A stretch of 64,000 bases of DNA from a bacterium. Its GTDB lineage: Archaea; Thermoplasmatota; E2; JACPAO01; JAHFTW01. The position numbers and the translations under genes are program-made. A model generated the notes under the pieces. The model was not told the DNA's origin. It ran no database searches and saw only the letters and a program-made list of their open reading frames with translations. Below are positions 5,642-64,000 of this stretch, piece by piece (position 1 is the first letter of the stretch; every line of letters begins with the position of its first letter). The stretch lies in NCBI GenBank assembly GCA_040390065.1, contig JAZJZE010000006.1:12551-76550 (forward strand). Reading direction: 5' to 3'.

Positions 5642-5723
5642 GCACGCGTACCCAAGCGGCCAACGGGAACCGGCTCAAGATCGGTTGCTTCGTGCTTCAC
5701 AGGTTCGAATCCTGTCGCGTGCA
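5642..5723 (+). tRNA. tRNA-Leu (anticodon CAA), class II with long variable arm, no encoded CCA
   Basis: Manual cloverleaf. Acceptor GCACGCG/CGCGTGC; D stem CCC/GGG; anticodon stem ACCGG/TCGGT with loop CTCAAGA; 13-nt variable region; T arm ACAGG-TTCGAAT-CCTGT; discriminator A. Confidence 0.85.
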
Positions 5724-11555: not shown

Positions 11556-11660
11556 GGTGTCGGAGCGTTGCACGCGCAACCGGGCCCAACGTAGCCAGAA
11601 CCACTTAATGTCGCAACGCGATGGAAAGGGTTGGCTGAGGAGTCGGCCGGAGTGGTTGTC

Positions 11661-13304: not shown

Positions 13305-13500
13305 TCGTTGGACGACACGATCGATATCTCGGGCACCCAGCTGGAAGGCCTCATGCGGCCCGCCCGTGCGGACGCTTCTCTGCGCGCGCATCCGCGCCGG
13401 CACTCCGATCCACGCGCAATCGGGCCCGAACTAGCCAGCACCACTTAATCCCCCAACGCAATGCGAAGAGTCGGCCGAGAGTTCGGCCTGGGTGGTTGGA

Positions 13501-15270: not shown

Positions 15271-15281
15271 GGCGTGATTCA

Positions 15282-29074: not shown

Positions 29075-29146
29075 CCCCCATCATGGTTCAACCTGCCATT
29101 GTCCCTAGGGAGACCATCCCAAGGGCCAATTGATCGAGGTCCCACG

Positions 29147-32100
29147 ATGCAGCGCACGCAACCCACCGGCCGCCTGAACAGGTTCTCGGCCCTGACCCTG
29201 ACGTCTCTCCTGGTAGTCGCCGGGCTTTTCGTCATCCCCCTGCTGGCCCCGAACGTCAGCGCTGCACCGCCCGTGGTCGCCAAACAATGGTACCAGGACC
29301 TCGACTGCAACGGCCACGTCGACGCGGTCACCATTGTCTTCAACGACCCGCTCGGCACCGCCGTGGCGATGAAGGACGACTCGATCCGTCCCTCCGACTT
29401 CACCCTCACCTACGCCCTCGGCACGGGCACCATCAGCATTCCCGCCAACGGCTTCATGACGACGGCACCCGTCCCCGGCTCCGGCTACCCCGCCGCCGGT
29501 TGCGTTGCCGGTGTCACCGCAGGCCTACCGTCCTCTCCCGGCACGAACCAACCGACGGCGGCCAACGGCTGCCCCGCCGGAGCCGGCATCGACGACTCGT
29601 GCTTCACCCTCCTGTTCCCTGAAGGCCTCAACCCGGACGGCGGCCCCACGAACAACGGCGGCACGGCCTACAACCCGCCAGCCATCACGTACAACCCTGA
29701 CGCTGCGGCACCGGCGCACACCGTCGCGGGCATCAACCTCGCGTCGCTTGGCGCTTGCGCCTCCGGCACCTGCCGGTTCGACGCGACCGCGCCGACGCTG
29801 CGCGCGGCCTACGCCAAGACCGGCGATTCGACCATCACCGTCCTGTTCTCCGAGAACGTCGGCGTCGGCGCCAACGCCGGCACCGTCCCGGCCGCCACGG
29901 ACTTCTGCGTCACCGGCGCCGCGCAACTCGCGGGCAGCCCCCCTGTCTCCGTCCCGTCCGGAAGCCTGCCCAACCGCGGCTTCAAACTGACGCTCACGGC
30001 GCCCATTGCCAACCCCGCGGCCGTCACCGTCGGCGTCGGCAGCGGCACCTGCACCTCCAACATCGTCGACACCGCCGGCAACATCGTCCCCGGCCGCACG
30101 GTCACGACGGGCGCGCCCTTCGTCAACCGCGTCTATGCGAGCGCCGGCGACGCGACCCTCGTGATCGAGTTCAACGGCCCCGTCTGGGACGGCACGACCG
30201 ACATCACGCAGATTCAGAGCACCTTCGAGGTCATCACGGGTTCCGGCTCCGGCCTCACCGGCCTGCAGAGCACGGGCTTCCACACGAGCGGCTCCGACCG
30301 CGTCCAGGTCTCGGCCCAAGGCTCGCCGCCTAACAAGTGCGACATCACCCAGTCGGCGACCGATTGCGGTTCCGCCAACGCGGGCACCCGCATCCGCATC
30401 GCGGCCAACAAGATCTTCGGCTTCAAGGCGACCGGCATTCCTGAACAGCCCACCGGCACTCCGGTCGGCCCGTGCGTCTTCACCAACACCGCGGAGGATT
30501 TCTGCCTCAACGACCCCGTCAATGTCCCGACGCCTCCCGCCGGGGTCTCGGGCTCCATCACGGCGCCGCGCGTCGTGCAGTTCATGACCGAGGACACCAA
30601 CCAGAACGGTTGCCTGGACACCATCAAGGTCACGTGGAACGAGAAGATGGACGACAGCACGATTGGAGGAACGGGCTGGCGCGTCTTCTTCCCCAACGAG
30701 GTCGTGCAGACGCTGCCGACGATGCAGTCGCTTGAGCCGACGACCGGCGCCGGCGCGGCGAACGACCAGTACACGTACCTCAACTTCCTTGCGGGAGAGA
30801 CCTGCACCGGCTCCACCCCGTCGCCCTACGGCAACACGGGCGTCCTGCCCCGGGTGTCCTTCTGCGACGGCATCGATGTCTCGCGCTCCGGCGCCTGCCT
30901 CACATCGACCAAGGACTTTTCGGGCCTGTTGAACACTGGCAGCCAAATGGTCGCCGGCAACAACATGGCTCTCAAGAATTACATCTACCGCGCCCCGACG
31001 GTCGACGGCGCCAAGCCTGTCATCGTGGCGGCTTCGACGCGCGACACGGCCCCCAACGACGGCTACCTCGACGCAATCAAGATCCAGTTCTCCGAGGGCA
31101 TTGATGCAACCACGGTCGACGCGACGCAGTGGACGGCGGTCATCCCCGCCTGGACCGTCGCGGCCCGCTGCCCGCGCGCCGTCGGCTTCACCTACTCGGT
31201 GACGAGCGTCACGACGACCAACTCCAACCCGCAGACCCAGCCCGCGCTGCCGACCCTCGGCACACTCGCAGGCGACGTCATCCTCAACCTCGCGGCCACC
31301 CCGGTCACGAACCCGGTTGGCGACTCGGGCTGCGTCCCCGACGTCACGTACACGGGCGGCGCCAAGTTCGTCAAGGAGTCCAGCGCCACACCGGGCGGCC
31401 TGCTGGCCAACAACGTCCCGGCGGACACGTCGATTGGCGTCTGCGCAGCGGACGGCACGCTCGGCGGCAACGGCAACACGTTCACCAACAACAAGCTGTG
31501 CGAGAACGATGGTGCGCCCCCCGTCATCATCCCGTCCCTGACGTTGGGCACGGTCGGTTCCGACACGGCGTACGTCACGATGAGCGAGCCAGTGTTCGGT
31601 TCGGGCGGCGGTGCGCCTCCGGCAACCTGCGGCACGCCGGCGGCCGGTGGCACATGGGCGGCTAGCCAAGGCTTCCTGCGCGCCTCCGACTTCGACTACC
31701 AGGACAACTCCAACGGTGGCGCCACGGGCATCGCCGGAGTGAGCTCCATCAGCAGCGACTGCCGCAAGTGGCAGATCACCCTCAACGTCCCGAACGGCGG
31801 CGGCCTCAGCAGCTCGGACCAACTCGCCGACTGCATCCAGTCGCGCATTCCCACGTCGTCTGCCCAGGAAGGCATCCGCGATGCGGTCCCCGCAGCGCCT
31901 TGGGTCTCGCCCCCGGCCACACCGACCGGCATCGGCAACGTCGGCTACCCGACGGACGGCGCAACCATTCCCTGCGTCAAGTTCACGACTGGACCCTCGC
32001 CGGTCTCCGGCGCCGTCACGATGGACTCCGACAGGGACGGCTCCCTCGACGCCATCCAAGTCACGTTCACGTCGAGCGTCAAGGACATCGTCACCAATGC

Positions 32101-35100
32101 GGCGACACCGGCCTTCGTGGCCGCCGCCTGTCCGGGTGACGCGGACTGTGGCGCCGCGTTCAAGGCCATCAGCGGATCGCTGGTCTGCCGCGTCGACGTC
32201 CTTCCGACTGCCGCTGGCACCGTCGGCCCCGAGGACCGCTTCTACGCCCACGTGGGCGGCACATGCACGGCCACCGTCGCGGACGGAGACTTCCGTTACT
32301 CCGGAATGCCGGGCACGGCCGCCATCAACAAGAAGGCAGGGACCCCGGTCGTCTGTGTCGGCACGGCGGACGCTGACTGCGGCAATACCCTCACCGGCGT
32401 CACGGGAGGCACTCTGCGCCGGGTGGGTGGCCCAGGCAGCGGTGGCGCTCCCACGGCGACGGACCTGCTTTACAACGACGTCGGCGGCTCAAGCACGACG
32501 AACGTCGAGAACGGCGACTTCCGCCTGTCCGGCGCCGACTCGCGCGCCTGGTCCGTGACCTTCCCGTCCGGCGTCGCCATCGTGAGCGGTGTGAGCAGCG
32601 GCCAGGCCACCGGCCCCGGCACGCACTCCAACACGTTCGGCACCGCCCCCACCGGCGCCGCCTGCCACGACTCGACGATCCTGACGGCCAACGTCGCCAA
32701 CGACAACATCCTCTACATCTGCTTCGAGGAACTGCGCGACGCGGCCGGCAAGCTCATCCCGAACACGGGCGCGGTCCCGACGTTCAGCTACATGGGATCG
32801 ACCCTGCTTGACTCGACGGGCGGCGTGATTGGTGTCTTCAACAACCAGGCGACGGTCGACGGCGCGCAGCCAGTCCTGGTCTCCGCCTTCGTCGGCACGG
32901 TTGCCACCGGCGCGTTGCCGATCCTCGGCGCGCAGCCCAAGACGATCACGGCCACGTTCAGCGAGCCGGTCACCGAGACGGGTGGCAACGCTCTCTTGGT
33001 CTCCGACTTCGCTTACACGAACGGCAACGCAGGTGCGGCCAACACGAACTGCCCCAGCGGCGCCGCGAGCCTTGCATCGCTCGTCTCCGGCGGCACGGCG
33101 CCCACGGGAACGCTCAGCCAGACGCACACGGTCGTGCTCACGACGGACGGGCCCATCACGACCTTCGACGTGGGGCCGAACCCCGTCACGGGCGTCTTCC
33201 TCGCCGGCGGCGGCACATGCCTGACAGTGTTCGACAGCGTCCGCGCCATCTCTGGCCAAGTGGTCGAGAAGGCGGCTCCGCACGCGACCGTCTACACGCC
33301 GGCCTCGGCCCTGCGCCTCACGGACGCGGAAGCTCCGAGCATCGCGAGCGCTGGTTTCATCGACGCCAACGGCGACGGCATCATCGACGCGGTCCAGGTC
33401 AAGTTCAACGAAATGGTCAACGACGCTCCGCTGACGGCCGCCGACTGGTCGGTCAAGATCGGAACGCAAGCGCTGACCATCAAGGCCGTGACGACGGGCC
33501 AAGACGGCACCGAAACCGTCGACGGGCCGGGCGTCTGCCAGAACACGTATTCGCTCGCGACGGGCACGGGCGCCGTGAAGACGGTCTTCGCGCTGTACCC
33601 GGACGAGGTCACGCCCGCAACCGGATTCGGCAAGGGCCTCTTCGACGACACCATCTTCCTCTGCCTCAACCCCGACGCGGCGACCGCCAACGGCGGCACC
33701 AAGACGCTGGGCACGGGAGCCACGGGCTCGCTGCTGTACTCCGCCGCTGCCCCCGCAAGCCGCATCACGGACGTCCAGATGGCGACGAACAAGTTGCAGG
33801 ACCTCGCCGCGGCGGTCACCATCGCAGACCTGGCTCGCCCCGTCATCCTGAACAACTGCCGCGTCGGCTCGGTCCAAGCCGGGGCCACCTGCCCCGCAGA
33901 TGTGTCCGACGTCAGCGTCGAGACGGTTGACCTCAACAGCAACGGCAAGATTGACGCGCTGAAGGTCACGTTCTCGGAGAAGGTCAAGGACAGCACGTTC
34001 ACGGTCGGCCAATGGAACCTCGCCGCACGCGCGCTCACGGGCATGCAGAGCGGCTCCATCGTCCCGACGCCGGCCGGCGAAGTCGACGACGCAACCATCT
34101 ACCTCACCTTCGCCGAGGCCTCGTCGCTCGACAGCGGCACGGGCCGCTACGGCTCGGCCACCATCCCCGACGTCGCGTACTTCGGTTCCGGCTCGATGAA
34201 GGACCTCAACAACAACCTGCTTCGCGGGGTGAGTCCCGGCGCGTGCAACGCACCGACCGTCGGCTGCTCCGACGAACGCGACGGCGCTGCCCCGACCATC
34301 GTATCCATCACGGCTGCGCCCGGCACGAACCTGGTCACCATCCAGTTCAGCGAGAACGTCGGCACGGGTGCGACGGGCACGGGCGCCATCGGCACGGCCG
34401 ACCTGGCGTACGTCAACACTGCCTCGGGCGGTGCCTCCAGCATCAACAGCATCAGCCACGCCGTCGGCAGCTCGACCCTGACGCTCACGCTGAATGCCAA
34501 CCTGAACTCGGCCGATGTGGCAAGCGGCGGAGACAAGATCGTCTTCACACCGGGCAACATCAAGGAGTTCAACTGCGGCGCCCACACGCCCCCGTACGCT
34601 TACCCCATCGTCGGCCCTGCGGCGCCCAACTCGTGCTACCGCGAAATCGCGATCACGCAGTCCAGCGTCGAACTCGCAGGTGTCAAGAGCCACGCGCCGC
34701 CGACCGCCCCGGTCCTCACGAAGGACCCAACCGGTGACACGGCAACGGGCGCCAAGTTCACCTGGACGGTCCCGACGACATCCGGTGGCGCGACCCTGGC
34801 ATCCTACGAGTTCTTCGTGTGCCAGGCCCCGACGCTCCCCGCGTCGCACGCGGGCTGTGTTGCTCCGACCGGCGGCCAACCCGCCGCCTCGGCCACGTCG
34901 CTCACGGTGACCGGCCTTACGACGGGCAGCACGTACAGCTTCGGCATCCGTGCCATCGACTCGGACGGCCTGGCTGGCGCCGACTCCAACGGCATCAACG
35001 GTTATGTCCCGGCCGCGCCGGACACCGATCCGCCCTGCGCCATCACCGACCTCTCGGTCGGCACGACGACCAGCAACTCGGTCACCCTGACATTCCAGTC

Positions 35101-36511
35101 GCCGTTCGAGGACTGCGCCGCCCACGCGGGCAAGGTCAAGAGCTACAAGGTTGCCGTCTCGACGGGCACCGCGATCGGTTCGCAGGCGCAGTTCGATGCA
35201 GCCGTCGCGACGACGGGCCTGTCGTTCAGCCCCGCCACGCCGCAAGCGAACCCGACGCTTCAGGGGCTGACGGTCAGCAACCTCCAGCCCGGCCAGCAGT
35301 ACCTCATCAGCGTCGAGGCCGTCGACGACGCCACCCCGACGGCCAACGTCGGTCCCCTCGGCGCCGCCGTCCCCGCAACGCCGTCGGCTCCTGGTGGGAC
35401 GCCCGCCAAGATCGTCGACCTCGCCGTCACGGCCGGGTCGGCCTTCGGCAGCGTCGACCTTTCATGGTCAGCGCCGCCCAAGGACAGCCTCCTCGGAACG
35501 GGCACCGTGACGGGCTACGATGTCCGCATCACGACCTCGCCCGGTGGCCTCGGTGTCCCGGTGAGCAGCAGCGACCTGAGCTTCGGCTTCGGAACGCCGG
35601 GAGCACCGGGCCAACCGCAGAGCGCCACCATCTCGGGTCTGTCCGCCGACACGACGTACTACATCACCGTCGCCGGCAAGAACCTCGGCACGACCGGAAC
35701 GCCGTCGACCCCCGCGTCGATCACGATCGGTTCCGACCCCAACGCGCTCACCGTCGCGGCACTGACCGCGTTCGAGACCAGCTTCGCGAACACCCTCAAG
35801 GTCACGAACTCGGGCGGCACGAACACGCTGACCTGGGACACGCCGCCGGGCGACGCGACGCACGCGGCCGAGGGCATCCAGATCTGGAAGTCCACGAACG
35901 GCGGCCCGTACACGCTGGTCAAGACCATCTCGTCGCTCAGCCCCGAGTACGGCCTGAAGTCGATGACGGACCCCGGCTCGTCCTCGGACAAGTACCGCGG
36001 GACGGTCTACTACGGCAACACGGCGGCCAGCGGGTTTGCCGCCAACGGCGACCCCAACAGCATCCCGGGTTTCTCGAGCCTCCACGAGGCCAGCGCATCG
36101 TCCAACTTCCTGGGTCTCGACCCCATGATCTGGTGGATCATCATCGCGGCCGTCGGCCTGCTGTTGCTGCTGCTCATCATCCTCCTCATCGTCCGCAGCC
36201 GCCGCAACAAGGGCGGCGACTTCGCCGAGGAAGACGACGACGGAGGCTTTGCCGCGGTCGACGAGGGTGCCGAGGCGGCGCCTGCCATGGAAGCGCCCGA
36301 TGCCCCGCCGGCGGATGCAGCCGCGGATGCGGCCGCAGCTTCGGCCGCCGTAGCCGCCGCCGCAGAGACGCCGCCGCCCGCGCAACCACAGGCCTCGGCC
36401 GAAAAGCACTACCTCACGTGCCCCAAGTGCACGACCGAGTTCACGGCCATGGGTGTCAAGCCGCTTGCCATCCAATGCCCGAACTGCGGTGTCCGCGGCA
36501 CGCTCCGTTAG
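29147..36511 (+). CDS. Giant cell-surface protein 1 (about 2454 aa): Ig-like/FN3 modules, TM anchor, cytoplasmic zinc ribbon
   Basis: GAGGT lies 6 nt upstream of the ATG. Signal peptide MQRTQPTGRLNRFSALTLTSLLVVAGLFVIPLLAPNVSA. At least six DxDxDG...FSE modules and several FN3-like domains. TM helix MIWWIIIAAVGLLLLLLIILLIV followed by RSRRNK. Acidic/Ala-rich linker. Tail CPKC-x19-CPNC. Confidence 0.9.
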   Translation: MQRTQPTGRLNRFSALTLTSLLVVAGLFVIPLLAPNVSAAPPVVAKQWYQDLDCNGHVDAVTIVFNDPLGTAVAMKDDSIRPSDFTLTYALGTGTISIPANGFMTTAPVPGSGYPAAGCVAGVTAGLPSSPGTNQPTAANGCPAGAGIDDSCFTLLFPEGLNPDGGPTNNGGTAYNPPAITYNPDAAAPAHTVAGINLASLGACASGTCRFDATAPTLRAAYAKTGDSTITVLFSENVGVGANAGTVPAATDFCVTGAAQLAGSPPVSVPSGSLPNRGFKLTLTAPIANPAAVTVGVGSGTCTSNIVDTAGNIVPGRTVTTGAPFVNRVYASAGDATLVIEFNGPVWDGTTDITQIQSTFEVITGSGSGLTGLQSTGFHTSGSDRVQVSAQGSPPNKCDITQSATDCGSANAGTRIRIAANKIFGFKATGIPEQPTGTPVGPCVFTNTAEDFCLNDPVNVPTPPAGVSGSITAPRVVQFMTEDTNQNGCLDTIKVTWNEKMDDSTIGGTGWRVFFPNEVVQTLPTMQSLEPTTGAGAANDQYTYLNFLAGETCTGSTPSPYGNTGVLPRVSFCDGIDVSRSGACLTSTKDFSGLLNTGSQMVAGNNMALKNYIYRAPTVDGAKPVIVAASTRDTAPNDGYLDAIKIQFSEGIDATTVDATQWTAVIPAWTVAARCPRAVGFTYSVTSVTTTNSNPQTQPALPTLGTLAGDVILNLAATPVTNPVGDSGCVPDVTYTGGAKFVKESSATPGGLLANNVPADTSIGVCAADGTLGGNGNTFTNNKLCENDGAPPVIIPSLTLGTVGSDTAYVTMSEPVFGSGGGAPPATCGTPAAGGTWAASQGFLRASDFDYQDNSNGGATGIAGVSSISSDCRKWQITLNVPNGGGLSSSDQLADCIQSRIPTSSAQEGIRDAVPAAPWVSPPATPTGIGNVGYPTDGATIPCVKFTTGPSPVSGAVTMDSDRDGSLDAIQVTFTSSVKDIVTNAATPAFVAAACPGDADCGAAFKAISGSLVCRVDVLPTAAGTVGPEDRFYAHVGGTCTATVADGDFRYSGMPGTAAINKKAGTPVVCVGTADADCGNTLTGVTGGTLRRVGGPGSGGAPTATDLLYNDVGGSSTTNVENGDFRLSGADSRAWSVTFPSGVAIVSGVSSGQATGPGTHSNTFGTAPTGAACHDSTILTANVANDNILYICFEELRDAAGKLIPNTGAVPTFSYMGSTLLDSTGGVIGVFNNQATVDGAQPVLVSAFVGTVATGALPILGAQPKTITATFSEPVTETGGNALLVSDFAYTNGNAGAANTNCPSGAASLASLVSGGTAPTGTLSQTHTVVLTTDGPITTFDVGPNPVTGVFLAGGGTCLTVFDSVRAISGQVVEKAAPHATVYTPASALRLTDAEAPSIASAGFIDANGDGIIDAVQVKFNEMVNDAPLTAADWSVKIGTQALTIKAVTTGQDGTETVDGPGVCQNTYSLATGTGAVKTVFALYPDEVTPATGFGKGLFDDTIFLCLNPDAATANGGTKTLGTGATGSLLYSAAAPASRITDVQMATNKLQDLAAAVTIADLARPVILNNCRVGSVQAGATCPADVSDVSVETVDLNSNGKIDALKVTFSEKVKDSTFTVGQWNLAARALTGMQSGSIVPTPAGEVDDATIYLTFAEASSLDSGTGRYGSATIPDVAYFGSGSMKDLNNNLLRGVSPGACNAPTVGCSDERDGAAPTIVSITAAPGTNLVTIQFSENVGTGATGTGAIGTADLAYVNTASGGASSINSISHAVGSSTLTLTLNANLNSADVASGGDKIVFTPGNIKEFNCGAHTPPYAYPIVGPAAPNSCYREIAITQSSVELAGVKSHAPPTAPVLTKDPTGDTATGAKFTWTVPTTSGGATLASYEFFVCQAPTLPASHAGCVAPTGGQPAASATSLTVTGLTTGSTYSFGIRAIDSDGLAGADSNGINGYVPAAPDTDPPCAITDLSVGTTTSNSVTLTFQSPFEDCAAHAGKVKSYKVAVSTGTAIGSQAQFDAAVATTGLSFSPATPQANPTLQGLTVSNLQPGQQYLISVEAVDDATPTANVGPLGAAVPATPSAPGGTPAKIVDLAVTAGSAFGSVDLSWSAPPKDSLLGTGTVTGYDVRITTSPGGLGVPVSSSDLSFGFGTPGAPGQPQSATISGLSADTTYYITVAGKNLGTTGTPSTPASITIGSDPNALTVAALTAFETSFANTLKVTNSGGTNTLTWDTPPGDATHAAEGIQIWKSTNGGPYTLVKTISSLSPEYGLKSMTDPGSSSDKYRGTVYYGNTAASGFAANGDPNSIPGFSSLHEASASSNFLGLDPMIWWIIIAAVGLLLLLLIILLIVRSRRNKGGDFAEEDDDGGFAAVDEGAEAAPAMEAPDAPPADAAADAAAASAAVAAAAETPPPAQPQASAEKHYLTCPKCTTEFTAMGVKPLAIQCPNCGVRGTLR

Positions 36512-36850: not shown

Positions 36851-39800
36851 ATGGTGGCTGGTTCCCCGAAGCCAAAGTACCGCGCCCCGGCGCGCATCCT
36901 GATGGTCGCCGCCGTGCTGCTCCTTGGCAGCCTGATGCCCGCCATCGGCCCCGCCGCAGCGCAGTCCGGCAGCACGACGCTCATGACCGGCCCGTTCTTC
37001 GACGACGCCGGATCGCAGACGTTCCCGCACTGTCCGACGACGCCGACGAACCCCGCCCTCAAGGCGCAGAACGACGACGGCATCTGGCAGGTCCGCCAAG
37101 TCACTGTCATCTCCTCCACGGACGTCAACCAAGTCACCTTCGATTACGTCGTCGGCACCGGCACGGGTGTGGGCGCCAACCAGCGCATCGAATGGGGCAC
37201 GTCCACCGCAGGCAGCAAGGCCGCCGGCTGGCCGAGCATCTCCGTCTCCAACGGCGCAGCGTCCGGCAACCTGAACCGCCTCACGTTTTCGGGCGGCACA
37301 CTGTCGCACCTCAGCCTCGCCGGCCAAGTCTTCACGATCGCGTTCCGCGTCATCGGAAGCCCCGCGGCCGACGTCTACACGCAGCTGGGCGCCGGCAAGG
37401 TCAGCGTCACCGCAGGCAGCAAGGACGTCGTCGGCACCGGCACGGCCTTCACGCAGTTCTTCGCCGTCGGCAACACCTTCAAGGTGAGCGGCGACGCGCA
37501 CCAGTACAAGGTCGCAAGCATCCAGGACGCGACCCACCTCAAGCTCACGGACAAGCTGGTCGGCTCCTCCATCACGCCGACGACGGCGCTCAACTACACC
37601 AAGATTGACCCGGCCACGACGACCACGCCCGCGACGTTCCCCGTCAAGGTGGACAACGACGCCAGCATCTGCATCGTCATCGACATGACGCCGCCGCACG
37701 TCATCTCGGCCTACACGCGCGACACGAACTTCAACGGTCTCTTGGACGAGATGGTCCTCACCTTCGACGAGGAGATGGACCCGACGACGCTGAACCCCGC
37801 CTCGTTCGCCGTCAACGCGAGCTCCAGCGGCGAACCCATCCCCTACTCCGTGCTCCCGTCCAACGGCAAGAGCCTGGTCAAAGGACTGGGCAGCGACGAC
37901 GGCCATTTCTCCGACCCGGCATGCACCACGGCCTCACCGCCCGCCAATGCCTGCGTCAACCTCGAGAAGACCCTGAAGTTGTCGCTCGCGGAGGGTTACA
38001 AGTACGACACGGGCGTCTTGCCTGAGGTCACGTACCCGAAGGCCGGCGAGTCGGCGACGTTCTCGGACCTTGCGCACAACCCTCTCGCCAACATCACGAA
38101 CTCCGACCTCACCGAAGTCGACGGCGCCAAGCCCGTCCTGGTGAGCGTCTTCGACTTCGAGGGCGCCACCTCGATGATCGCCACGTTCAGCGAACCCGTC
38201 ACGGGCTCGGGCCCCAAGTCGGGCGCCCAGGCCGGCGACGTCGACAACTGCATCGGTGGTCTCGGCTGCGTCCGGACGACCGACTTCTTCTACTACGATC
38301 GCTGCGCCGGAAAACTCAGCAGCGACAGCCAGTGCAACCCGGCCACGGGCCTCAGCCACATGTCGGGCACGAATTGCATCACCGCGCAATCCGGTCTTTC
38401 CCCTGAGATCGGCGTCTCCATGCACACGCCTGGCCCAACGAACGGCAACACGGTGACGCTGCCCGTCATCGCTGTCGCCTCGGACCCTGGCTGCGATGTG
38501 GCCGGCAAGGGGCAAGGCGTCAAGGGCTACGTCGGCAAGGGCGACGCTCAGCAGGCGCTCGGTGATGTCATCGCGCTCAACACAATGGCCTCCGAACCCG
38601 TGAGTTCCATCACTTGCCCCGGCATCGACTTCCTGCCCTGCGGCGCCCTCGTACGCGACGCCACCGGCCTGCGCGGCGTCCCCACGGCTCCGTGCAGCAT
38701 CGCCAACGTGTGCAACGCCGGCGCCGGCCCCGGCGGCGGCGCCAACGGCATCAAGGGCGCAACCTCGTCGCTGCCCCTCGTTGTCGACGCGGTCGTCAAC
38801 ATCGACACCTTCCAAGTCACGCTCAACTTCAACGGTCCCGTGAGCGACGCCTCCGGCGACGACAAGCCCCTTACGCTGCAGGACCTCACCGTCATCTCGG
38901 CCGACGGTCCCAGCAACTCGCAGGGGCCGGGCGGCATCACGCAGATCCTGCACCGGGCCGGCGCCTCGCGCGCCATCCTGACGCTGGACAAGAAGGTCCG
39001 GCCGACGGACGTCGACGACACGCCGACCAAGATCGGCATCAAGTGCAATGCCATCAAGGGCACGCGGCAGGCGGCGTTCGTGCCGTGCGGCGATCCTGAC
39101 GGCACGGGCGGATCGGGAGTGGCCCTCATCGACAACGTTCTGCCCGCCATCCTCAAGGCCGAGACGGTCGACATGGACCGCGACGGCCAGGTGGACGGTT
39201 TGTTCCTGGAGTTCAACGAGCCGGTCGACGACACGACGTTCTGTCAGCTTGGCAACGCGCCGCCCCCGGCCGAATGCTACCCCGGTTCCGGCGGCGTCGG
39301 CCTGCAGGTGGGCAAGTACCACCACCCCGCGGACGCGACGGGTCCGGAGACGAAGTACGTCTTCGACACGGACGCCAGCCCCGGAGGCGTTGGCGCGCCC
39401 ATCAGCGTCGACCAAGGCAACGGCCAGCCCAACGACCGCTTTGGCATCATCAAGTTCGTGAACCCGTTCAAGCAGCCCATCGGCCTCGGCACTGCCGACC
39501 CGGCCGACACGGCCATCACGACGACCGCCGCAGGCCTGTTCTCCGACCTGTCCCATCCGGGGCCGCCGACGCAGCCGCCGTACGCCCAGGCCAAGCAGAT
39601 GGCACAGATCTGCCCCACCGGATGCCTCGGCTCGGTCAAGCTCCTGGACGGCGCGCCGCCGGTGCTGCTCTCGGCCTTGACGGTCGACACGCGGCTCACG
39701 GTTCCTGGAGCCCCCACGGTCAACGACCTGGAAGGGGACGGCTACCTCGACGGATACCGCATGACGTTCAGCGAACCCGTGCTCGACAAGTCGTTCTGCC

Positions 39801-42046
39801 ACAACAACCTGCAGACCGGCCCCGTCTACCTGTGCAACTCGGTGGAGTGGGCTGTCGAGGGCCACAAGGTCATCGGCATGCGCACCCGCGACCCGAACGT
39901 CGTCGACCTCACCGGCCTCACGAACGTCGACAACGAGGTCACGCTGCTCTTTGCCCCGGGCGACCACCCGGATACCGGCGAGCGGCCCAAGCTCACGTAC
40001 TTCGGCCCGTCGCAGCCCACGTACGGCTTCAAGGATCTGCAAGGCGTCCAGATGCTGCCCCTGCAGCCGATCGACGGCTTCGAGGAGGACGATGCAGCAC
40101 CGGTCATCACGTTGGTCGAGGGCTTCCTCGGCCGCAACAACGTGACCATCCGCTTCAGCGAGCCCGTCGACAACGGCCAGAAAGGCGCCCTCGGGCGCTC
40201 CAGCCTGCTGTACTTCAACATCGACCACTTGCCCGACGGCGTCTCCGGATTGTCCTCGCAGGACGCAGTCGTGCACTTCGCCGCCACGGACAACCTGATT
40301 GCGCACCTGAACTGCCCCGTCAACGCGCCCAAGACGGTGCCGGACTGCGGCAACATCGGCTTGCAGGTGCACGACATCCAGAACGACACCATCTCGGCCG
40401 AGCTGAACTCCATCTGGGAAACGTCCCCCAGCGTCCCGTCGCCGCATGTCGTTTCCAAGAAGTCCGTGTCGGTGAAGAACCACCACCTCGGCAACGCCAT
40501 CGACATCTTCCGCCCCGCCAACGTCACGCAGTTCCAGGTCGTGAAGCAGCTGACGTCCGCCAACTCGGTGACCCTGAGCTGGAAGGCGCCCGGCAACGAC
40601 GGCAACGGCTTCGGCTCGGTGCGCGGCTACCGCATCAAGGTGTCGACGCAGAAGATCGCCCCCGGCGACTTCAACGTCTCGTCGGCGCCGGGCAGCTACG
40701 GCCTTGGCGACTCGAACCCGAACGCCACCCTCAACGCCGACGGCAGCGCCAATATCGTGCGGCTGCGCGGCGACCAGGTCTACGCCATCCTCAGCCCCGA
40801 CGCGGGCGGACTGGCCGGTCCTGGCGAGTACCAGCAGGCGACCATCATCGGCCTGCAGGCCCAGACCACGTACCACTTCGCCGTCGAGGCGTTCGATGCC
40901 GCGACGCTGCCGCCGTGCTACACGACGGATGCAGGTCACACGACGTTTGCCGCCCCAGTGGCCGCTTGCCCCTCGACCAACACGAAGCGCGTCGACTTCC
41001 GCCACTTCTCCGGCATGCGACCGGATGACGTCTCGATTGCCGCGACGCAGTACGACGTCTCCACGGCGACCGGCATCGACCTGACGCCGCCGGTCCCGAC
41101 ACCGGTCATCGCAAGCACGACGCACCCGGCGAACCGCCCCGACCCGAAGATGACCGCCATCTTCAGCTGGACGAACGCGACGGACGGCGAGTCGACGGTG
41201 AACTACCACTACGCGCTCAACACGGACCCGCAGTACAAGGTCCTCGTCACGGACTTGGTCTACACGGGCGCTGCCAACCTGCCGAGCGTCTCGATCCCCA
41301 TCCCGAGCCGCGGCACGTGGTACTTCCACGTCGCGGCCTTCAGCGGCGGCGGCTCGACGGCGACGGCGCACTACACCATCATCGTGGACCGCCCGACCAT
41401 CGACCCCGCGGACATCCGCGAACGCAACGACCTCGTGCTCACGAACGCGACGCGCGACGGCGCGACCAACTCGGTGACGTGGCACCTGCCGGACCAGGCG
41501 CTCCTGCCCCCCGGCGGCCAACTCGAGGGCGTCGACATCTACGCCATCGAAGGATGCGGCTCCTCGACGGGCTGCACGGTCGTCAACGCCCACTCGATCA
41601 CCGGCACGTACGACCAACTGCAGTCGGGCACGTGGACGGACGACCGCGCGACGGCCGGAAGCGTCACGGGCTACCGCGTCGAGATGGTCTTCGCCAACGC
41701 GCAGACGCAGACGCCGACCGGCGGGAGCCACAGCGTCCAGGGTTTCGCCGCCATCCAGGAACAACCCGGCCACGACAACTCCGCGCTCTGGTGGCTCCTG
41801 GCCGCTGTCCTACTGGTTCTCGTGGCGGCCGGCATCGCCTTCCTGGTGATCCGCAGCAAGCGCGCCAACGCTGCAGCCTTCGAGGAGATCCCCTCGGAAT
41901 CGACCGCGGCGGGCATGGACCCCGTGACCGGCCTGCCGGCACATGACGTGCGCTGCCCCTCGTGCCAGACGGCGTTCCAGGCGGTCGGCAACCTGCCGCT
42001 GCAGATCACCTGCCCCAACTGCGGTGTTTCGGGCCTGCTGCAGTAG
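36851..42046 (+). CDS. Giant cell-surface protein 2 (1731 aa), paralog of proteins 1 and 3
   Basis: Signal peptide MVAGSPKPKYRAPARILMVAAVLLLGSLMPAIGPAAAQS. DxDxDG...FSE/FNE modules and FN3-like domains. A YHYALNTDP...TWYFHVAAFSGGGST module is shared with protein 3. TM helix LWWLLAAVLLVLVAAGIAFLVI. Tail CPSC-x19-CPNC. Confidence 0.9.
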   Translation: MVAGSPKPKYRAPARILMVAAVLLLGSLMPAIGPAAAQSGSTTLMTGPFFDDAGSQTFPHCPTTPTNPALKAQNDDGIWQVRQVTVISSTDVNQVTFDYVVGTGTGVGANQRIEWGTSTAGSKAAGWPSISVSNGAASGNLNRLTFSGGTLSHLSLAGQVFTIAFRVIGSPAADVYTQLGAGKVSVTAGSKDVVGTGTAFTQFFAVGNTFKVSGDAHQYKVASIQDATHLKLTDKLVGSSITPTTALNYTKIDPATTTTPATFPVKVDNDASICIVIDMTPPHVISAYTRDTNFNGLLDEMVLTFDEEMDPTTLNPASFAVNASSSGEPIPYSVLPSNGKSLVKGLGSDDGHFSDPACTTASPPANACVNLEKTLKLSLAEGYKYDTGVLPEVTYPKAGESATFSDLAHNPLANITNSDLTEVDGAKPVLVSVFDFEGATSMIATFSEPVTGSGPKSGAQAGDVDNCIGGLGCVRTTDFFYYDRCAGKLSSDSQCNPATGLSHMSGTNCITAQSGLSPEIGVSMHTPGPTNGNTVTLPVIAVASDPGCDVAGKGQGVKGYVGKGDAQQALGDVIALNTMASEPVSSITCPGIDFLPCGALVRDATGLRGVPTAPCSIANVCNAGAGPGGGANGIKGATSSLPLVVDAVVNIDTFQVTLNFNGPVSDASGDDKPLTLQDLTVISADGPSNSQGPGGITQILHRAGASRAILTLDKKVRPTDVDDTPTKIGIKCNAIKGTRQAAFVPCGDPDGTGGSGVALIDNVLPAILKAETVDMDRDGQVDGLFLEFNEPVDDTTFCQLGNAPPPAECYPGSGGVGLQVGKYHHPADATGPETKYVFDTDASPGGVGAPISVDQGNGQPNDRFGIIKFVNPFKQPIGLGTADPADTAITTTAAGLFSDLSHPGPPTQPPYAQAKQMAQICPTGCLGSVKLLDGAPPVLLSALTVDTRLTVPGAPTVNDLEGDGYLDGYRMTFSEPVLDKSFCHNNLQTGPVYLCNSVEWAVEGHKVIGMRTRDPNVVDLTGLTNVDNEVTLLFAPGDHPDTGERPKLTYFGPSQPTYGFKDLQGVQMLPLQPIDGFEEDDAAPVITLVEGFLGRNNVTIRFSEPVDNGQKGALGRSSLLYFNIDHLPDGVSGLSSQDAVVHFAATDNLIAHLNCPVNAPKTVPDCGNIGLQVHDIQNDTISAELNSIWETSPSVPSPHVVSKKSVSVKNHHLGNAIDIFRPANVTQFQVVKQLTSANSVTLSWKAPGNDGNGFGSVRGYRIKVSTQKIAPGDFNVSSAPGSYGLGDSNPNATLNADGSANIVRLRGDQVYAILSPDAGGLAGPGEYQQATIIGLQAQTTYHFAVEAFDAATLPPCYTTDAGHTTFAAPVAACPSTNTKRVDFRHFSGMRPDDVSIAATQYDVSTATGIDLTPPVPTPVIASTTHPANRPDPKMTAIFSWTNATDGESTVNYHYALNTDPQYKVLVTDLVYTGAANLPSVSIPIPSRGTWYFHVAAFSGGGSTATAHYTIIVDRPTIDPADIRERNDLVLTNATRDGATNSVTWHLPDQALLPPGGQLEGVDIYAIEGCGSSTGCTVVNAHSITGTYDQLQSGTWTDDRATAGSVTGYRVEMVFANAQTQTPTGGSHSVQGFAAIQEQPGHDNSALWWLLAAVLLVLVAAGIAFLVIRSKRANAAAFEEIPSESTAAGMDPVTGLPAHDVRCPSCQTAFQAVGNLPLQITCPNCGVSGLLQ

Positions 42047-42371: not shown

Positions 42372-45300
42372 ATGGCATCGAAGTCGAGCCGAATGGGTCA
42401 GCTGCTGGGTCCCCTGGTGCTGGCGTTCCTGATGGTCTTCACGGTCCTTGCGACGGTGACACCGCAAGCACAGGCTGCCGTGACGAGCCGACCGGAAGGC
42501 AAGGTCCTGATCACCACGGAGCCCGACTTCAACCTCCCCAACTACGACCAGATGGGGCCCACCGGGTCGATCTTCTACCCGTGGCAGGCGCAGCCGCCCG
42601 GACCGACGACGCAGCCGCCGCAGGTCGTCAACAACCCCTTGGCGACGTATCCGAAGAACCCGGCGACCGTGTACGTCAACACGAAGCACCAGGACCCGGA
42701 CGGCAAGTGTCCGGGCTGCTTCCAGCGCACGGTGCGCGTCGCCTTCAACGACATGGCCGTGACCCGCATCGACTTCGTCGCCCCGACCCGCGACGCCTTC
42801 TCGACGCCGGTCTGCAGCAACACCCCGGTGGATGCCTGGGCCGCCGCGATGGACCCGTGCAAGGACCACGGCATGCTGCGCTGGCGCCCCGAGTATTCCT
42901 ACGCCACCCGGCCTGGCTGGGCCGTGAGCGTCAACGCGGAGAACGCGAAGAAGAGCCAATGCGACGACCCGATCAAGTGCGCCATGGGCGACGACACGCC
43001 GCCGGCGCGCATCATGAGCTTCACGTCCGACGTGCCGAACCCGGTGCCCAGCCTGCTCTTGGGAACGACGCCGGGCGACGCTCGCCTCGCCAACGCCCTC
43101 GATATCGTGCTTGCCTTCTCCATCGATGGCACGCCTTCTGGCGACGACGGCATGCAGACGTTCCCGCAGACGCCCGCCGACGAATTCCACGTCCAGATCA
43201 ACGTGACACCGTCGGGAAACCCCAACATCCCGTTCGAGACGACCTGCCCTGCATGGAACTCGGCCACCGGCGTCAACGGCAACCCGCAAAGCCCCTTCAC
43301 CTGCGTCTACACCAACCCGCCGTTCAAGGGACCTGCGCCCGTCAACTTCCCGGCTGAGTTCATCGCCGACCCGCGCTTCTCGTCCGTCGACTGCGGTGTC
43401 CCGGGCGGCTTGTGCACCGGCACTCCTGGCCTCGTGATCCGCGTCGACAACACGCCGCCGGAAGTCCACGAGACGTCCAACGGCGACGCCCGCGTGGCTG
43501 CCGGAAACGGCGGTCCCATCCCGTGTGTCTGCAGTTTCTTCTCGCAGGACGTCGACCACAACGGCCACATCGACCGCTTCATCGTCTCGTTCACCGAGCC
43601 GCTGAACCCGAACACCTTCGACTTCCGCCAGTTCAGCATCCAGACGAAGGGCCGCGACCGCCCCTACACGATCACGAACGCCTTCTTCGAGCAGCAGAGG
43701 GCCGGCCCCGGCCCCGAGGAAGGCCTGTGCTTGCAAGGGCTCACGACCCCGCCCGCGCAGACGCCGCCTCTCACGCCGATTCGCATCACGTACCCTGGCT
43801 CGACGTGCCGCGTCGACTTCCTCGTGGCGGAGATGCCCTTCATGGACTCCGGCGACACGCCGAACCTGAAGTATCCCTGTGACCTCTGCCCCGCGACGGC
43901 CACGGACCGCGCCGGCAACCCGCTCAAGAAGATGACTGGCACGACCATCCTCGCCGTCGACCGCGCCCCACCGATCCTCTACTCGACGTACGCACTCGAC
44001 GCCGCCCACAACGGTGGCGTCCCCTACGCGCAGACGGAACTGCAGGTCTTCTTCTCCGAGAACGTCATGGGCTCTGGCTGCAACGACCCGCAGGCCGGCC
44101 CGCCCGCAACCTGCGGCACGCGCCCCGTCCAGTTCAACGACTTGTGCTACATGGACAATGTCTCGCCCGGCGGTGCCGGCGACGTGATCGGCAAGCCGAC
44201 GCCAGACCTGCCCTCGGGTGGCCGCGTCATCACGAGCATCACGACGACCATCAATCCGTCCGACACGCTGAACTTCGCGACGGGCCCCGTCATCACGGCC
44301 GGCCAGATCTACTACATCGGCACCGTAACATCGGGAACGACGACCGGCGGCGGCGCCACCAGGCTCATCGACACGAGCAAGAACTTCGCAGCCATCGGCG
44401 TCACGGTCGGCATGATCATCGACTTCAGCGGCGGATGCTCGGCGCCCATCGGCGCATGCACCGGCTGCTTCTCCCTCGATACGCCGTATGACACGACATC
44501 GGCCGTCTGCCAGCCCGCACCCAAGTGCCGCTACTTCGACCTCGTCGACCACACGCCGGCACCGGGTGCCAGCTCCGTCGGCACGGCTGGCGACGGCTGG
44601 AAGATGCGCGTGCTGACGATGCTCAACCCGACGGACACCAACAACCGACTCATGTACGGTTCGGCCGACGTGCATCCGTTCAACGGCGACATGATCACGG
44701 TCAACGTCGCGCCGCACGGACTGACGCGCGGCTGCTTCGCCGTCATGCTGGAGCAAGGCATCCTCGGCACCGACCCGTGCAACGCCGACGTCCGCGACCT
44801 GCACGACAACGGCGCCTGGTACCCGACCGGCCTGCCGCGCGTGGCCTACCCGCGCCCGCCCGCCTTGGCGCATGTGACGTTCCCGATGGTCAAGTCGGCG
44901 ACCGTCGATTCAAGCAACCCCAGTTGCCCGCAGTCCACGCCCGGCAAGGGCGTCGGTCCCGGTGACCTCACGGACACGGTTGCCTGCCACTACTGGCTGA
45001 AGCTGCAGTTCAATGGCCCGGTGCGCGGCCCCAACGGCCCCGCCTCGTGCGACACGACGACCGGCAGCGGCAAGACGGCGAAGCCGTTCTTCGCCTGCAA
45101 CCTCGACATCAAGGCCGCCACCGGCAAGGAGCTCGGCCAAGGCCCGCAGGGCTTCTTCGGCCCGGCGCCGCCGTCCACGACCGGCTCAAGCAGCACGGCC
45201 ACGCAGGCGCCCTACTACCTGATGGGCGACAACGACCAGGCAGTCCTGCAGATGGACTACGCCGCCCGACCCATCGACGTCTCCCTGAGCGGAGCGCGCG

Positions 45301-48300
45301 TCAAGCTCGTCTGCAACACCATCTTCGCAACCCCGGGCTGGGTCAGCAAGTACAGCCTCGACCCGAGCACGACCGGCGTCAACCCGCTGGTCGGCGCCAT
45401 CCCCTGCGACGACCCCGACCAGTACTACGGTCCGCAGGAAGACTTTGGCGGCGTCGTGCAGCGCCCCGACATCGACATCGTCGACCTGACGCCGCCTCGC
45501 ATCCTCGAGGCCCGCACCGTCGATGCCGACCACAACGGCTACCTCGACGGCGTGCAGCTGACCTTCAGCGAGCCCATCGACGACGGCAGCTACTGCGGCA
45601 ACGACCCGTCCGCGCAGGCCGCGCCCAACTTCTGCCCTGACACCGAATCCGGCGCCGGCACGGGCTACATCACGTTCTCGCGTTGGACTTCGCAGGAGAT
45701 GATCCGCGCCATGACGGACGTGCACGAGGAAGAGTGCTTCGCCTCGTCCGGTACACTGGACGGCACCGACACGGGCACGCCCTACACGGACGGCTTCAAG
45801 TGGGACACGGGCACGCTGTCCAACGACAACGTCGGCACCATCCTGCACGTGCGCACACTGACGCAGCAGGACGGCTCTTACATCACGCGTCCGCAGGACT
45901 GCAACGAATACTTCCGTGGCGTCCGCATGGATGGCCTGCCAAACCCGCCTGCCCCCAACGGCGACGGCGCGACGCGGCCCCTGCAGCGCTGGCCGACGGA
46001 TTCGCTCCTGCACATCACTTCCCCGGTGCCCGGCCTCTTCTCGGATCTGGCGACCCATCCGTTCCACGACAACTCGGACATCTTCAGCCCGCCCAACTCG
46101 CCGCCGGTTGCCAACCCCAACCAGTTGCCGCGCATCTGCCAGTTCGAGTCGCGCGCCATGACGGGCCAGGCGGGCACCTACAACCAGGTGCAGAGCCACC
46201 CGAGTGCGGCGTGCGACACGACGCAGATCACGGTGGATTCCGTGCGTGTGACGGACGGCGCGCCGCCCGTGCTCTGGAAGGCGCAGACGTACGACACGCC
46301 TGTCCTCGATGTCAACGGCATCCCCGACACCAAGAACTTCTGGAACAACCTGTTCGGCGACGGCACCATCGACGGCTACCGCCTGACCTTCAGCGAACGG
46401 GTCAACGACGGAAGCTTTGTCGCCGCCGACTGGCACGTGGCGGGCCACGACACGCTGGAGTTCACCAACCCGACGGGCTGCAGCAAGCCGGGCAAGACGA
46501 CGTATGTCAACCACGAGGTCACGATCGACACCGTCATCCCGGGCAAGGCCCTCATGCGGACGCGGGACACGACGCTGAACCCGTTCGACCCGCTGCAGAA
46601 CGACCAGATCTCGCAGGGCCAGAGCGACGACCAGTTCATCCTGCTGTTCACGCCGGCGAAGACCATCTTCACCAAGCCGGACGGCTGCAAGGAGTTGCAC
46701 GCCGCGTACGACACGGAGACGAAGCCTGAACTGACGGCGTCCGGCCCCAACGGCCACTTGCACATGGCGGACCGCGCCGGCCTCCTGAAGCCGAACCCGA
46801 TCTGCCCCAGCAACACCGCCAACTGCTGCCCAGGCGGGCCGTCCATCAACAACTGCATGGTCGACTTCGACACCTTCGCCGTGCAGGAAGAGGACCGCGC
46901 CGGTCCACAGATCGTGCGCATCGAGGGCTTCGCCGGAACGAACCACATCGACGTGCGCTTCAGCGAACCCGTCGACGACGGCAGCCACAGTGGCCTGGTG
47001 CGCGACGACTTCCAGTACTTCGACAAGAACGCCAAGGACGTGGCGGGCTTCTCCAGCACGGAGCCCGTGGAGTCCACGGCCGGTGGCCGCAACTCCACCA
47101 TCCACCTCGGCCAGCTTCTGACGGTCTCCGACCAGACGTCGGACAAGATCGCCGCCAGGACCTGTCGCATCTACGAGGTCGCTCCGTCGGTCAGCCCGTC
47201 GCAGCGCCAATGCGTGCCGAGTTACCCGCGCTCGCTCGTGCCCGAGAACGACACCGCCGCGCCCGGCGCCCTGTCCGACTTCCGCATCGTGGCCGAGCTC
47301 ACGAACGCCAACAGCCTGACAGCGAGCTGGACCGCGCCTGCCGACGACGGCACGGCCGGCAAGCCAGTGTCGGGCTACACGTGCCTCGTCGGTACGCGCA
47401 CGATCCTCGGCAACGAGACGAACGACAACCGCATCAGCTTCTCGTACGACCCGCCGGTGTCGTCGCTTGCCGGACCGGGCCTCACGCAGACCGTCCGCAT
47501 CGCAGGCCTCGACTCGGAAGCCAAGTACTACATCGCCTGCTACGCCAAGGACGATCTCGGCAACCTGTCGCCGCTGTCCGAGGTGGCGTCCGGGACGACG
47601 ACGCGCGATGTCACGCCGCCGACCGGCACCATCACCATCAAGTCGCCGTCGCACCCCGCCGGCGTCCCGACGGCTGGCAACACCATCTCGTTCACCTGGA
47701 ACGCCATCACGAAGGCGCAGGAGCCCGAGTCGACCGTGGTGTACCACTACGCGCTCAACACGAACCCGAACTACGTGGTTCTCGCCACCGACGGTGCAAC
47801 CCAGGACACGAAGGTGACGCAACTCGCTCCGGGCGACGGCACGTACTACTTCCACGTCGCGGCCATGAGTGGCGGCGGCTCGACGCTCACGGCCCACTAC
47901 CAGGTCGTGGTCGGCTTGCCCCCGCTGACGGTCGCCTCGATCGAGTCGGCCAACGACCTCGTCAAGACCGAGCCGTTCCGCCAGGAGCAGGAGTTGAACG
48001 GCCAGACGGTCGTCCTCAACAACGTCACCTGGACGCTGCCGCCGGACACGACCCCTCCCGGCTTGGACATCAGCGGCGTCGAGATCTGGCGCGAGGACCA
48101 CGGCATCTTCACGAAACTGAACCTCGCCGACACGGACCCGAAGATCTGCTCGCACCCGCTGTCGGGCTCGTACGACGACCTGAAGAGCGGTCACTGCTGG
48201 GACACGAGCCTAGGCGCCACCGCCGACTCGAAGTACAAGGTCACGATGGTCTTCGCGACCCCCCCGCACACGCAGGGCGAACCCGTGAAGGGCTACGCCG

Positions 48301-63943: not shown

Positions 63944-64000
63944 GCGCCCGTAGTCTAGTGGTAGGACTTTACCTTGCCAAGGTAAAAGCGTGGGTTCAAA
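63944..64000 (+). tRNA. tRNA-Gly (anticodon GCC), truncated by the window end
   Basis: Acceptor 5' strand GCGCCCG; D arm GTCT-AGTGGTA-GGAC; anticodon stem TTACC/GGTAA with loop TTGCCAA; start of the T arm GTGGGTTCAAA. Confidence 0.8.

Follow-up and report, generated by a model that had tools for sequence, protein, structure and literature searches.

The three giant proteins encoded in tandem on the + strand of a 64,000-nucleotide stretch of archaeal DNA (contig JAZJZE010000006.1 of assembly GCA_040390065.1, positions 12,551 to 76,550; hereafter the window) all end in the same small module, a 34-residue segment with two CPxC knuckles which is predicted to fold as a Cys4 zinc ribbon and which likely lies in the cytoplasm. 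The C-terminal order is common to all three proteins, here numbered 1, 2 and 3: a 23-residue transmembrane (TM) helix is followed by a basic stop-transfer sequence, a linker and finally the ribbon (Table 1). Related tails close several unrelated membrane proteins in other archaeal sequences, and we favour, with confidence that is about evenly balanced, a role for the ribbon as a membrane-tethered docking or adaptor domain on the cytoplasmic side.

Each giant begins with a Sec-type signal peptide, and the charges flanking its helix are strongly asymmetric. Across 60 members of the family there are 3.1 Lys and Arg residues in the 12 positions after the helix versus 0.63 in the 15 positions before it. 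Together, the N-terminal signal peptide, the single C-terminal helix and this positive-inside bias indicate that the tail is likely cytoplasmic, a rule-based estimate which agrees with the type-I anchor proposed in a preliminary description of this DNA. The translations also agree with that description in placing the stop-transfers RSRRNK, RSKR and KRRSK, and a closing Cys4 motif, at the ends of the three giants. An extracellular disulfide-bonded knot was considered and is unlikely given the basic flank after the helix. The linker of protein 1 had been credited with ~90 extra residues, but the actual surplus is ~37-39: it runs for 65 residues from RSRRNK to the His (75 from the helix to the first Cys), compared with 26-29 in proteins 2 and 3.

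The tails of the giants conform to the pattern H-[DE]-V-x-CPxC-x3-F-x-A-x-G-x2-PL-x3-CPxCG-x2-G-x-L-x, with 15 residues between the Cys pairs and the end of the protein falling 7 residues after the last Cys. A degenerate DNA pattern of the motif matches the window three times, against 0.00 matches expected (100 shuffles). When all six frames of the window were scanned for C-x2-C...C-x2-C, the genuine coding frames held only the three giant tails, and the remaining Cys4 matches were Arg-rich, off-frame junk. Sequence conservation reaches into the tether as well. Alignment confirms that proteins 2 and 3 share TGLP[AV]H[DE]VRCPSC, as previously noted, and the sequence D-x-x-T-G-[LM]-P stands before the ribbon in both of these lineages. 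The tether of protein 3 also contains an aromatic motif, A-Y-x-W-E, which recurs as [AG]-Y-x-W-E even in distant family members, and these tether elements may represent a short linear binding motif. Net charges read from the sequence distinguish the three tails as basic (protein 1, ~+3), neutral (protein 2, ~0) and acidic (protein 3, ~-2) flavours.

A profile spanning all 450 columns of P0001 was searched against 1.84 billion cluster representatives and returned 1314 matches, many of them generic FN3 proteins; among the best 150, ~50 are giants with the same ribbon end. The last 336 residues of protein 3, used as a query, found one metagenomic relative which is 65% identical overall and differs in the tail at 2 of 34 positions. 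Giants of the same family are encoded on several metagenome contigs. Word-indexed protein searches with the tail alone or with a helix-plus-tail alignment gave no matches, the query being too short and the candidates being swamped by helix words. Scanning species-representative genomes identified four archaeal metagenome-assembled genomes (MAGs) that carry the motif, their records being labelled Thermoplasmata, Thermoplasmatota, Methanobacteriota and 'uncultured Halobacteriales', and the degenerate DNA pattern matched 20 metagenome contigs of the Joint Genome Institute (JGI). The same pattern found no matches among viral contigs, and a viral or mobile-element origin of the ribbon was dropped on that basis. 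Where ribbon giants have a database name at all, it is 'fibronectin type III domain-containing protein' or 'hypothetical protein'.

Sixty tails were aligned to examine conservation within the module. These were chosen by CPxC-x15-CPxC, which fixes the Cys and Pro residues of the knuckles by construction and leaves the other columns as the informative ones: no variation is seen at Phe +7, Gly +11, Pro +14 or Gly +26, while 57/60 tails have Leu +28 and 54/60 have His -4. The C-terminus lies exactly 7 residues past the last Cys in 57 of the 60 proteins, and in all 20 metagenome contigs the frame ends 7 codons past it even though the DNA pattern leaves the stop unspecified. The family consensus is H-[DE]-[VIL]-x-CPxC-x3-F-x-A-x-G-x2-P-L-x3-CPxCG-x2-G-x-L-x-COOH. 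Between orthologues the ribbon is 74-97% identical versus 35-68% for the ectodomains, and the tether of the protein-3 lineage is 56-83% identical. The earlier view that conservation of the tail far exceeds that of the extracellular parts holds: the last ~450 residues of the paralogues are 30-31% identical to protein 1 overall, against invariant motif columns. The preliminary description would have been undermined had the motif been absent from orthologues or its Cys residues confined to this genome; instead, orthologues in other archaeal MAGs keep both motif and gene order, and the Cys residues together with the Phe, Gly, Pro and Gly listed above are invariant in tails from far outside it.

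This conservation is maintained at the protein level. Protein 3 and its orthologue in a second MAG (L002) have 33 of 34 ribbon residues in common but only 19 of 33 codons, and so many synonymous changes point to purifying selection on the protein rather than to gene conversion. Recent gene conversion between the paralogous tails of the window is likewise ruled out, since only 10 of 22 codons are the same among their conserved residues.

The flavours of the tails are inherited with the genes that carry them. All three recur, with gene order unchanged, in a Thermoplasmata MAG (L003); L002 has the protein 2 and protein 3 types, after which come the same FtsX-like and acyl-CoA dehydrogenase genes. 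That each paralogue keeps its own flavour in the same order points to specific surfaces beyond those needed for the fold alone. Alternatively, the three tails might bind one another and so hold the giants together in a fixed hetero-complex or in a lattice, for instance a canopy resembling an S-layer (surface layer), with no need for another partner. The shared gene order of L003 and L002, the retention of each flavour at 74-97% between orthologues, the complementary net charges of ~+3, 0 and -2 and the presence of two tandem ribbon-bearing giants in L004 are all consistent with this arrangement. We nevertheless regard it as unlikely, given that single-copy proteins of other families also carry the ribbon, as do mini-proteins for which no triad is evident, and that self-association is not general among small zinc ribbons.

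AlphaFold2 models of the end of protein 3 were built from the family alignment. In the 100-residue model the helix is predicted with confidence and the tether with low confidence, and four short strands have predicted local distance difference test (pLDDT) values of 71-81; in the 336-residue model the ribbon (pLDDT 86-89) follows two FN3-like sandwiches, a pair found together with the helix and ribbon throughout the family alignment. Zinc ribbons are recognised by two CxxC knuckles and an antiparallel arrangement of 3-4 strands, features with which the CPxC-x15-CPxC pattern and the four predicted strands agree. The term C4 zinc ribbon used in the preliminary description is sound at the level of prediction, resting on the four short strands (pLDDT 71-89) and on weak matches to zinc-ribbon families only. 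Foldseek aligned the ribbon over 31-38 residues with eS27, LysW, the ZitP zinc finger 2nb9 and TFS4, none of them significantly (E >=0.3), and aligned the sandwiches with the FN3 tandems of many receptors and adhesins, a generic result. Comparisons of the ribbon with the PDB by Foldseek and by hidden Markov models gave non-significant matches or spurious C2H2 knuckle matches, in which only the class 'zinc ribbon' is informative.

The best sequence and structure neighbours are all zinc ribbons, and the best-scoring curated families are of the MJ0042 type. The isolated tails score 24.3 (protein 2), 23.2 (protein 3) and 19.5 bits (protein 1) against TIGR02098, for which the cut-off is 20.9, but the alignment covers profile positions 24-37 of 38, which amounts to one knuckle, and full-protein scores of 13.5 and 11.0 fall below the cut-off. 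Pfam Zn_ribbon_4 (PF13717) gives 17-23 bits against 30.3. Zinc fingers of the MJ0042 type are positioned at the N-terminus of their proteins; the present ribbon is the extreme C-terminus in 57/60 members and 20/20 metagenome matches. The FmdB-type Zn_ribbon_8 family has a similar strand, C-x2-C-x3-F and C-P-x-C-G elements and aligns over the full protein 3 ribbon, but its members are free cytoplasmic proteins and the giant tails score below its cut-offs of 31-34 (TIGR02605, 12.7-21.8 bits against 31.3; PF09723, 16-23 against 34.4). Nor do the tails belong to the haloarchaeal CPxCG families (HVO_2753, 11-12 bits against 80; HVO_2142, 9-14 against 90; Brz, 11-14 against 100) or to the rubredoxins (PF00301, 18.4 bits against 23 for protein 2 only; RubredRD, 13 against 90), and DUF7093, the family of CdpC, is absent from the Pfam matches listed for them. 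Weak sub-threshold matches extend to the ribbons of TFIIB, TFIIS, RpoP and Brz. Judged by profile scores and predicted models, the domain is zinc-ribbon-like but convincingly matched by no curated Pfam or NCBIfam family, and it would bind metal, presumably zinc.

Sorting signals recognised by archaeosortases or exosortases were also considered for the ends of the giants and rejected: the giants score below the cut-off of every such model. The sole sorting model seen was GG_III-CTERM (18.3 bits against 22, protein 1 only). The helix is, moreover, followed by another 60-109 residues. PGF-CTERM/archaeosortase, MYXO-CTERM and PEF-CTERM signals resemble the ribbon in being conserved, strictly C-terminal modules past the last hydrophobic segment on different proteins of one lineage. 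They differ in consisting of a short motif, a helix and a few basic residues and in being cleaved, whereas the giants have a tether of 26-100 residues and a folded metal domain.

The ribbon is not restricted to giants. On at least nine contigs (L009, L010, L013, L015, L021-L023, L025 and L026) it closes an unrelated protein of ~490 residues with no Pfam match, ending in RVRCPGCKHYFEAQGARPLSVTCPHCGRHGVLR. The N-terminal part of this protein comprises a helix and then a ~200-residue domain with an EF-hand-like motif, which probably lies outside the cell; in the C-terminal part two or three more hydrophobic segments are followed by a long tail, rich in Pro and Ala and containing short repeats, and by the ribbon. 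The helix count, and hence the side on which the tail of this protein lies, is based on a crude hydropathy analysis. Within the family the ribbon is 68-91% identical versus 47-56% for the body, and the protein again ends 7 residues past the last Cys. The gene is preceded by a ZIP zinc transporter gene and followed by a CheY-like receiver gene in both L015 and L022, and in L015 a NikR-like gene is found upstream of the ZIP gene.

Smaller carriers also exist. A two-helix small protein in L011 ends in the ribbon, as do the mini-proteins P0016 (212 residues) and P0117 (220 residues), which consist only of a lipobox signal, one membrane-proximal FN3-like domain, a TM helix, a linker and the ribbon; on its sequence, this architecture is the minimal conserved unit of the family. 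A possible free-standing version is encoded by a 58-residue open reading frame (ORF) with the ribbon signature (HYLHCPDCDADFVVVGKKPLLTKCPSCGAKGYLK) at L019 3060-3236 (+), a candidate whose start codon is uncertain. It overlaps the end of an ORF which we take to resemble the archaeal ribosomal protein eL40 (recognised from sequence, with no database match). Conversely, P0048 and P0103 are homologous to the C-terminal ectodomain module of the giants but have no ribbon, closing instead with a sorting signal of the MYXO-CTERM type (20.5 and 21.6 bits, cut-off 20); these relatives are probably bacterial and anchored differently. A further surface protein of the window has a plain helix and LRRK at its C-terminus. 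The existence of ribbon-less homologues, of a protein anchored by a plain helix and of unrelated carriers indicates that the ribbon is an optional and transferable C-terminal module.

The distribution of carriers bears on a purely mechanical role, in which a metal-stabilised knob would fix the N-out/C-in orientation or prevent the helix from being pulled out under ectodomain load, and no partner would be involved. Such a stopper would be expected to be strictly C-terminal, always behind a hydrophobic segment, very small and stable-looking, as the module is, and the MYXO-CTERM-type anchors of the ribbon-less homologues occupy the same position. A stopper has no need, however, of a flexible tether of 31-100 residues, of paralogue-specific conserved surfaces or of a fixed C-terminal register; it would be superfluous on the multi-pass proteins that the module also ends, and another surface protein of the window manages with its plain helix and LRRK. 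We consider this explanation distinctly unlikely.

The gene context of the ~490-residue family touches two further possibilities. Ribbons of TFIIB, TFS and Brz bind nucleic acid or RNA polymerase, and the giants might be receptors in which the ribbon is an effector, either released by intramembrane proteolysis or binding nucleic acid or RNA polymerase itself. The receptor-like architecture (an FN3 tandem, one helix and a cytoplasmic domain), the weak sub-threshold TFIIB, TFIIS, RpoP and Brz matches and the CheY-like receiver gene adjoining the ~490-residue family in two contigs would all fit. All of the ribbon-family matches are far below their cut-offs, though, the neutral and acidic ribbons of proteins 2 and 3 are poorly suited to nucleic-acid binding and neighbourhood scans showed no site-2 or rhomboid protease nearby, so that a signalling output of this kind appears very unlikely. 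Still more improbable, in our estimation, is a metal or redox sensor in which reversible binding of zinc or iron at the Cys4 site would inform the attached membrane protein about the metal or thiol status of the cytoplasm. The weak rubredoxin-like matches, the measurable zinc/cadmium exchange reported for GltJ ZnR (PMC11135422) and the position of the ~490-residue gene, which directly follows a ZIP zinc transporter in two contigs and has a NikR-like regulator nearby in one of them, are in keeping with sensing. Against this, the metal in CPxC/CPxCG ribbons usually plays a structural part, the link to ZIP is limited to two related contigs and the giants in the window have no metal-homeostasis neighbours.

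Docking of the ribbon to a cytoplasmic partner is favoured because the module is portable on unrelated membrane proteins, because the tails are paralogue-specific and because there are precedents in ZitP, GltJ and CdpC. The ZitP zinc finger of Caulobacter is reported to bind PopZ, as cited in PMC11135422, and in Myxococcus GltJ the ZnR domain, which sits on a flexible linker, interacts with that linker and with MglB (PMC11135422). CdpC of Haloferax volcanii (HVO_0399, DUF7093) binds FtsZ1 through a C-terminal zinc ribbon on a long disordered linker (bioRxiv 10.64898/2026.07.16.738847). ZitP and GltJ/AgmX (MJ0042 type; TIGR02098, Zn_ribbon_4 PF13717 and Zn_ribbon_5 PF13719) resemble the giants in having a cytoplasmic Cys4 ribbon of ~35-40 residues joined by a flexible linker to a bitopic protein. 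They differ in that their ribbons are N-terminal on type-II proteins whereas that of the giants is strictly C-terminal on type-I proteins; the giants are also set apart by their 15 residues between Cys pairs, archaeal host and giant FN3/Ig ectodomains. CdpC shares an archaeal, CPxCG-type, C-terminal ribbon connected by a long disordered linker to a membrane-binding part, but it is a peripheral protein with an amphipathic helix and no ectodomain, and no sequence relationship to the ribbon of the giants was detected. The possible 58-residue free-standing ribbon in L019 recalls the small CPxCG zinc-finger proteins of haloarchaea.

A folded metal domain on a flexible, partly conserved tether at the inner face of the membrane has the anatomy of a docking module. 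We therefore picture each giant as a type-I surface protein with a signal peptide, ~1,650-2,350 residues of external Ig/FN3-like domains, an FN3-like tandem at the membrane and one helix, below which an independently folding Cys4 zinc ribbon would be held in the cytoplasm by a flexible acidic tether of 26-65 residues. The ribbon would then be a portable, strictly C-terminal docking or adaptor domain for a cytoplasmic protein (a scaffold, cytoskeletal or regulatory protein), possibly joined in binding by the short aromatic tether motif, and through docking the cell interior would be linked to where the envelope proteins sit, how they cluster or what state they are in. The preliminary description had suggested docking to an intracellular partner; portability, the conserved tail of each paralogue and the precedents support the suggestion, but neighbourhood scans produced no candidate for the partner. 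In the window and its relatives these scans found only surface proteins and housekeeping genes near the giants, which weighs against docking, as do several other points. In a domain of 34 residues most of the invariant Cys, Pro, Gly, Phe and Leu residues could serve folding alone; the known precedents are N-terminal on type-II proteins and their homology to the ribbon is not demonstrable; the topology is set by the positive-inside rule only; and the metal site could be a rubredoxin-like iron site (Pfam rubredoxin E = 0.002, below threshold).

A more far-reaching version, which we put forward tentatively and think rather unlikely, is that the ribbon serves as a lineage-wide cytoplasmic 'address tag' on unrelated envelope and membrane proteins, read by a dedicated cytoplasmic scaffold or cytoskeletal system. 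Its carriers would then be the giant FN3/Ig proteins, the four-helix EF-hand-like protein next to the ZIP transporter and the small hairpin proteins. If this were true, wall-less archaea would possess an integrin-tail-like link from the surface layer to the interior, and the three tail flavours would encode different positions or partners.

The zinc-ribbon fold class and the idea of a membrane-tethered zinc ribbon are already known. A literature search for a C-terminal zinc ribbon on archaeal surface proteins found no description, and four aspects are apparently new: a type-I arrangement in which the ribbon stands strictly at the C-terminus of giant archaeal surface proteins; the fixed register, with the C-terminus 7 residues past the last Cys; the specific signature; and the occurrence of the same ribbon on several unrelated membrane proteins of one high-GC uncultured archaeal group. 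To our knowledge, very few physical links between envelope and cytoplasm have been described in archaea, and how giant surface proteins are organised, positioned and sensed in archaea without a rigid wall is largely unknown. The ribbon can be seen as a C-terminal, type-I counterpart of the bacterial N-terminal zinc-ribbon adaptors of ZitP and GltJ and, should docking prove true, membrane tethering of a small zinc ribbon would be a recurrent solution in both prokaryotic domains. In practical terms it offers a pull-down bait of ~34 residues, a search pattern for further carriers and a target for mutations affecting envelope-cytoplasm coupling.

Table 1. Positions of the giant genes, of their C-terminal parts and of the ~490-residue ribbon protein (window coordinates unless a contig is named).
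Feature	Position	Strand	Basis or remark
Giant protein 1	29144..36511	+	2455 aa from ATG 29144; ORF open from TTG 29099
Protein 1 TM helix MIWWIIIAAVGLLLLLLIILLIV	36125..36193	+	hydropathy
Protein 1 basic stop-transfer RSRRNK	36194..36211	+	translation, positive-inside statistics
Protein 1 acidic Ala/Pro-rich linker, 65 aa	36212..36406	+	disorder predicted by analogy with protein 3
Protein 1 predicted C4 ribbon HYLTCPKCTTEFTAMGVKPLAIQCPNCGVRGTLR, basic flavour	36407..36508	+	stop codon 36509-36511
Giant protein 2	36851..42046	+	1731 aa; same as cluster representative P0013; also on Logan contig
Protein 2 TM helix ALWWLLAAVLLVLVAAGIAFLVI and RSKR	41783..41863	+	hydropathy
Protein 2 linker, 26 aa, ending ...DPVTGLPA	41864..41941	+	
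Protein 2 predicted C4 ribbon HDVRCPSCQTAFQAVGNLPLQITCPNCGVSGLLQ, neutral flavour	41942..42043	+	
Giant protein 3	42372..48611	+	2079 aa from ATG 42372; ORF open from ATG 42321
Protein 3 membrane-proximal FN3-like beta-sandwich pair	47601..48335	+	AlphaFold mean pLDDT 86.5; Foldseek; family alignment
Protein 3 TM helix WIWILAGIALALILSGLVIFVIL and KRRSK	48336..48419	+	helix pLDDT >90 in 100-residue model
Protein 3 linker LEATGGTAYSWESANPELLGIDEATGLPV, 29 aa	48420..48506	+	pLDDT <55
Protein 3 predicted C4 ribbon HEVRCPSCNNPFQAVGALPLPVTCPTCGTTGELE, acidic flavour	48507..48608	+	four strands, pLDDT 86-89
~490-aa ribbon protein, L015	8067-9539		
~490-aa ribbon protein, L022	10097-11584		
~490-aa ribbon protein, L023	10953-12452		

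The giant genes are the three large genes of the window, which has a G+C content of 68%. Past the signal peptide, Ig-like (Big_5) and FN3 domains make up most of each protein, and Asp-rich, EF-hand-like motifs (D-x-D-x-[DN]-G-x-x-D) occur repeatedly; in protein 1 the succession is signal peptide, Ig-like/Big_5, three FN3 domains, C-terminal helix, linker and ribbon. The upstream-most start codons of two of the ORFs are probably not those used. Protein 1 probably starts at ATG 29144, as its orthologue P0146 begins MRNTQPAGRL..., and protein 3 at ATG 42372, as the gene called on the Logan contig encodes 2079 residues. N-x-S/T sequons number 1 in protein 1 (29144-36508) against ~22 expected from composition, 10 against 13 in protein 2 and 7 against 15 in protein 3; the near-total avoidance of N-glycosylation sequons by protein 1 is unusual among archaeal surface proteins.

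Conserved neighbours of the giants comprise a transglutaminase-like protein, TSP3-repeat surface proteins, an FtsX-like permease and housekeeping genes. In the window the transglutaminase-like gene lies upstream (23698-25386) and the FtsX-like permease gene downstream (48952-50349), and counterparts with 35-64% identity stand near giants in distant MAGs (L004 12-632 and 18525-20756; L002 11079-12491), a hint that the surface-protein genes form a conserved cluster. A tandem array at 9924-11555, 11631-13304, 13492-15270 and 15234-17624 encodes four secreted paralogues. Three of these have TSP3 repeats (Pfam), one of which also has RCC1 repeats, and all four end, with no helix, in C-A-N-E-N-P-[FL]-T-P-L-D-G-x-C-V-G-x-D-Y-x-P-P, a Cys-containing sequence that may be a different C-terminal sorting or attachment signal. 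The window also contains a tRNA-Leu(CAA) gene at 5642-5723, found by ARAGORN and unreported by Rfam at its gathering threshold, and a tRNA gene at 63944-64000 (Rfam) which is cut by the 3' end of the window.

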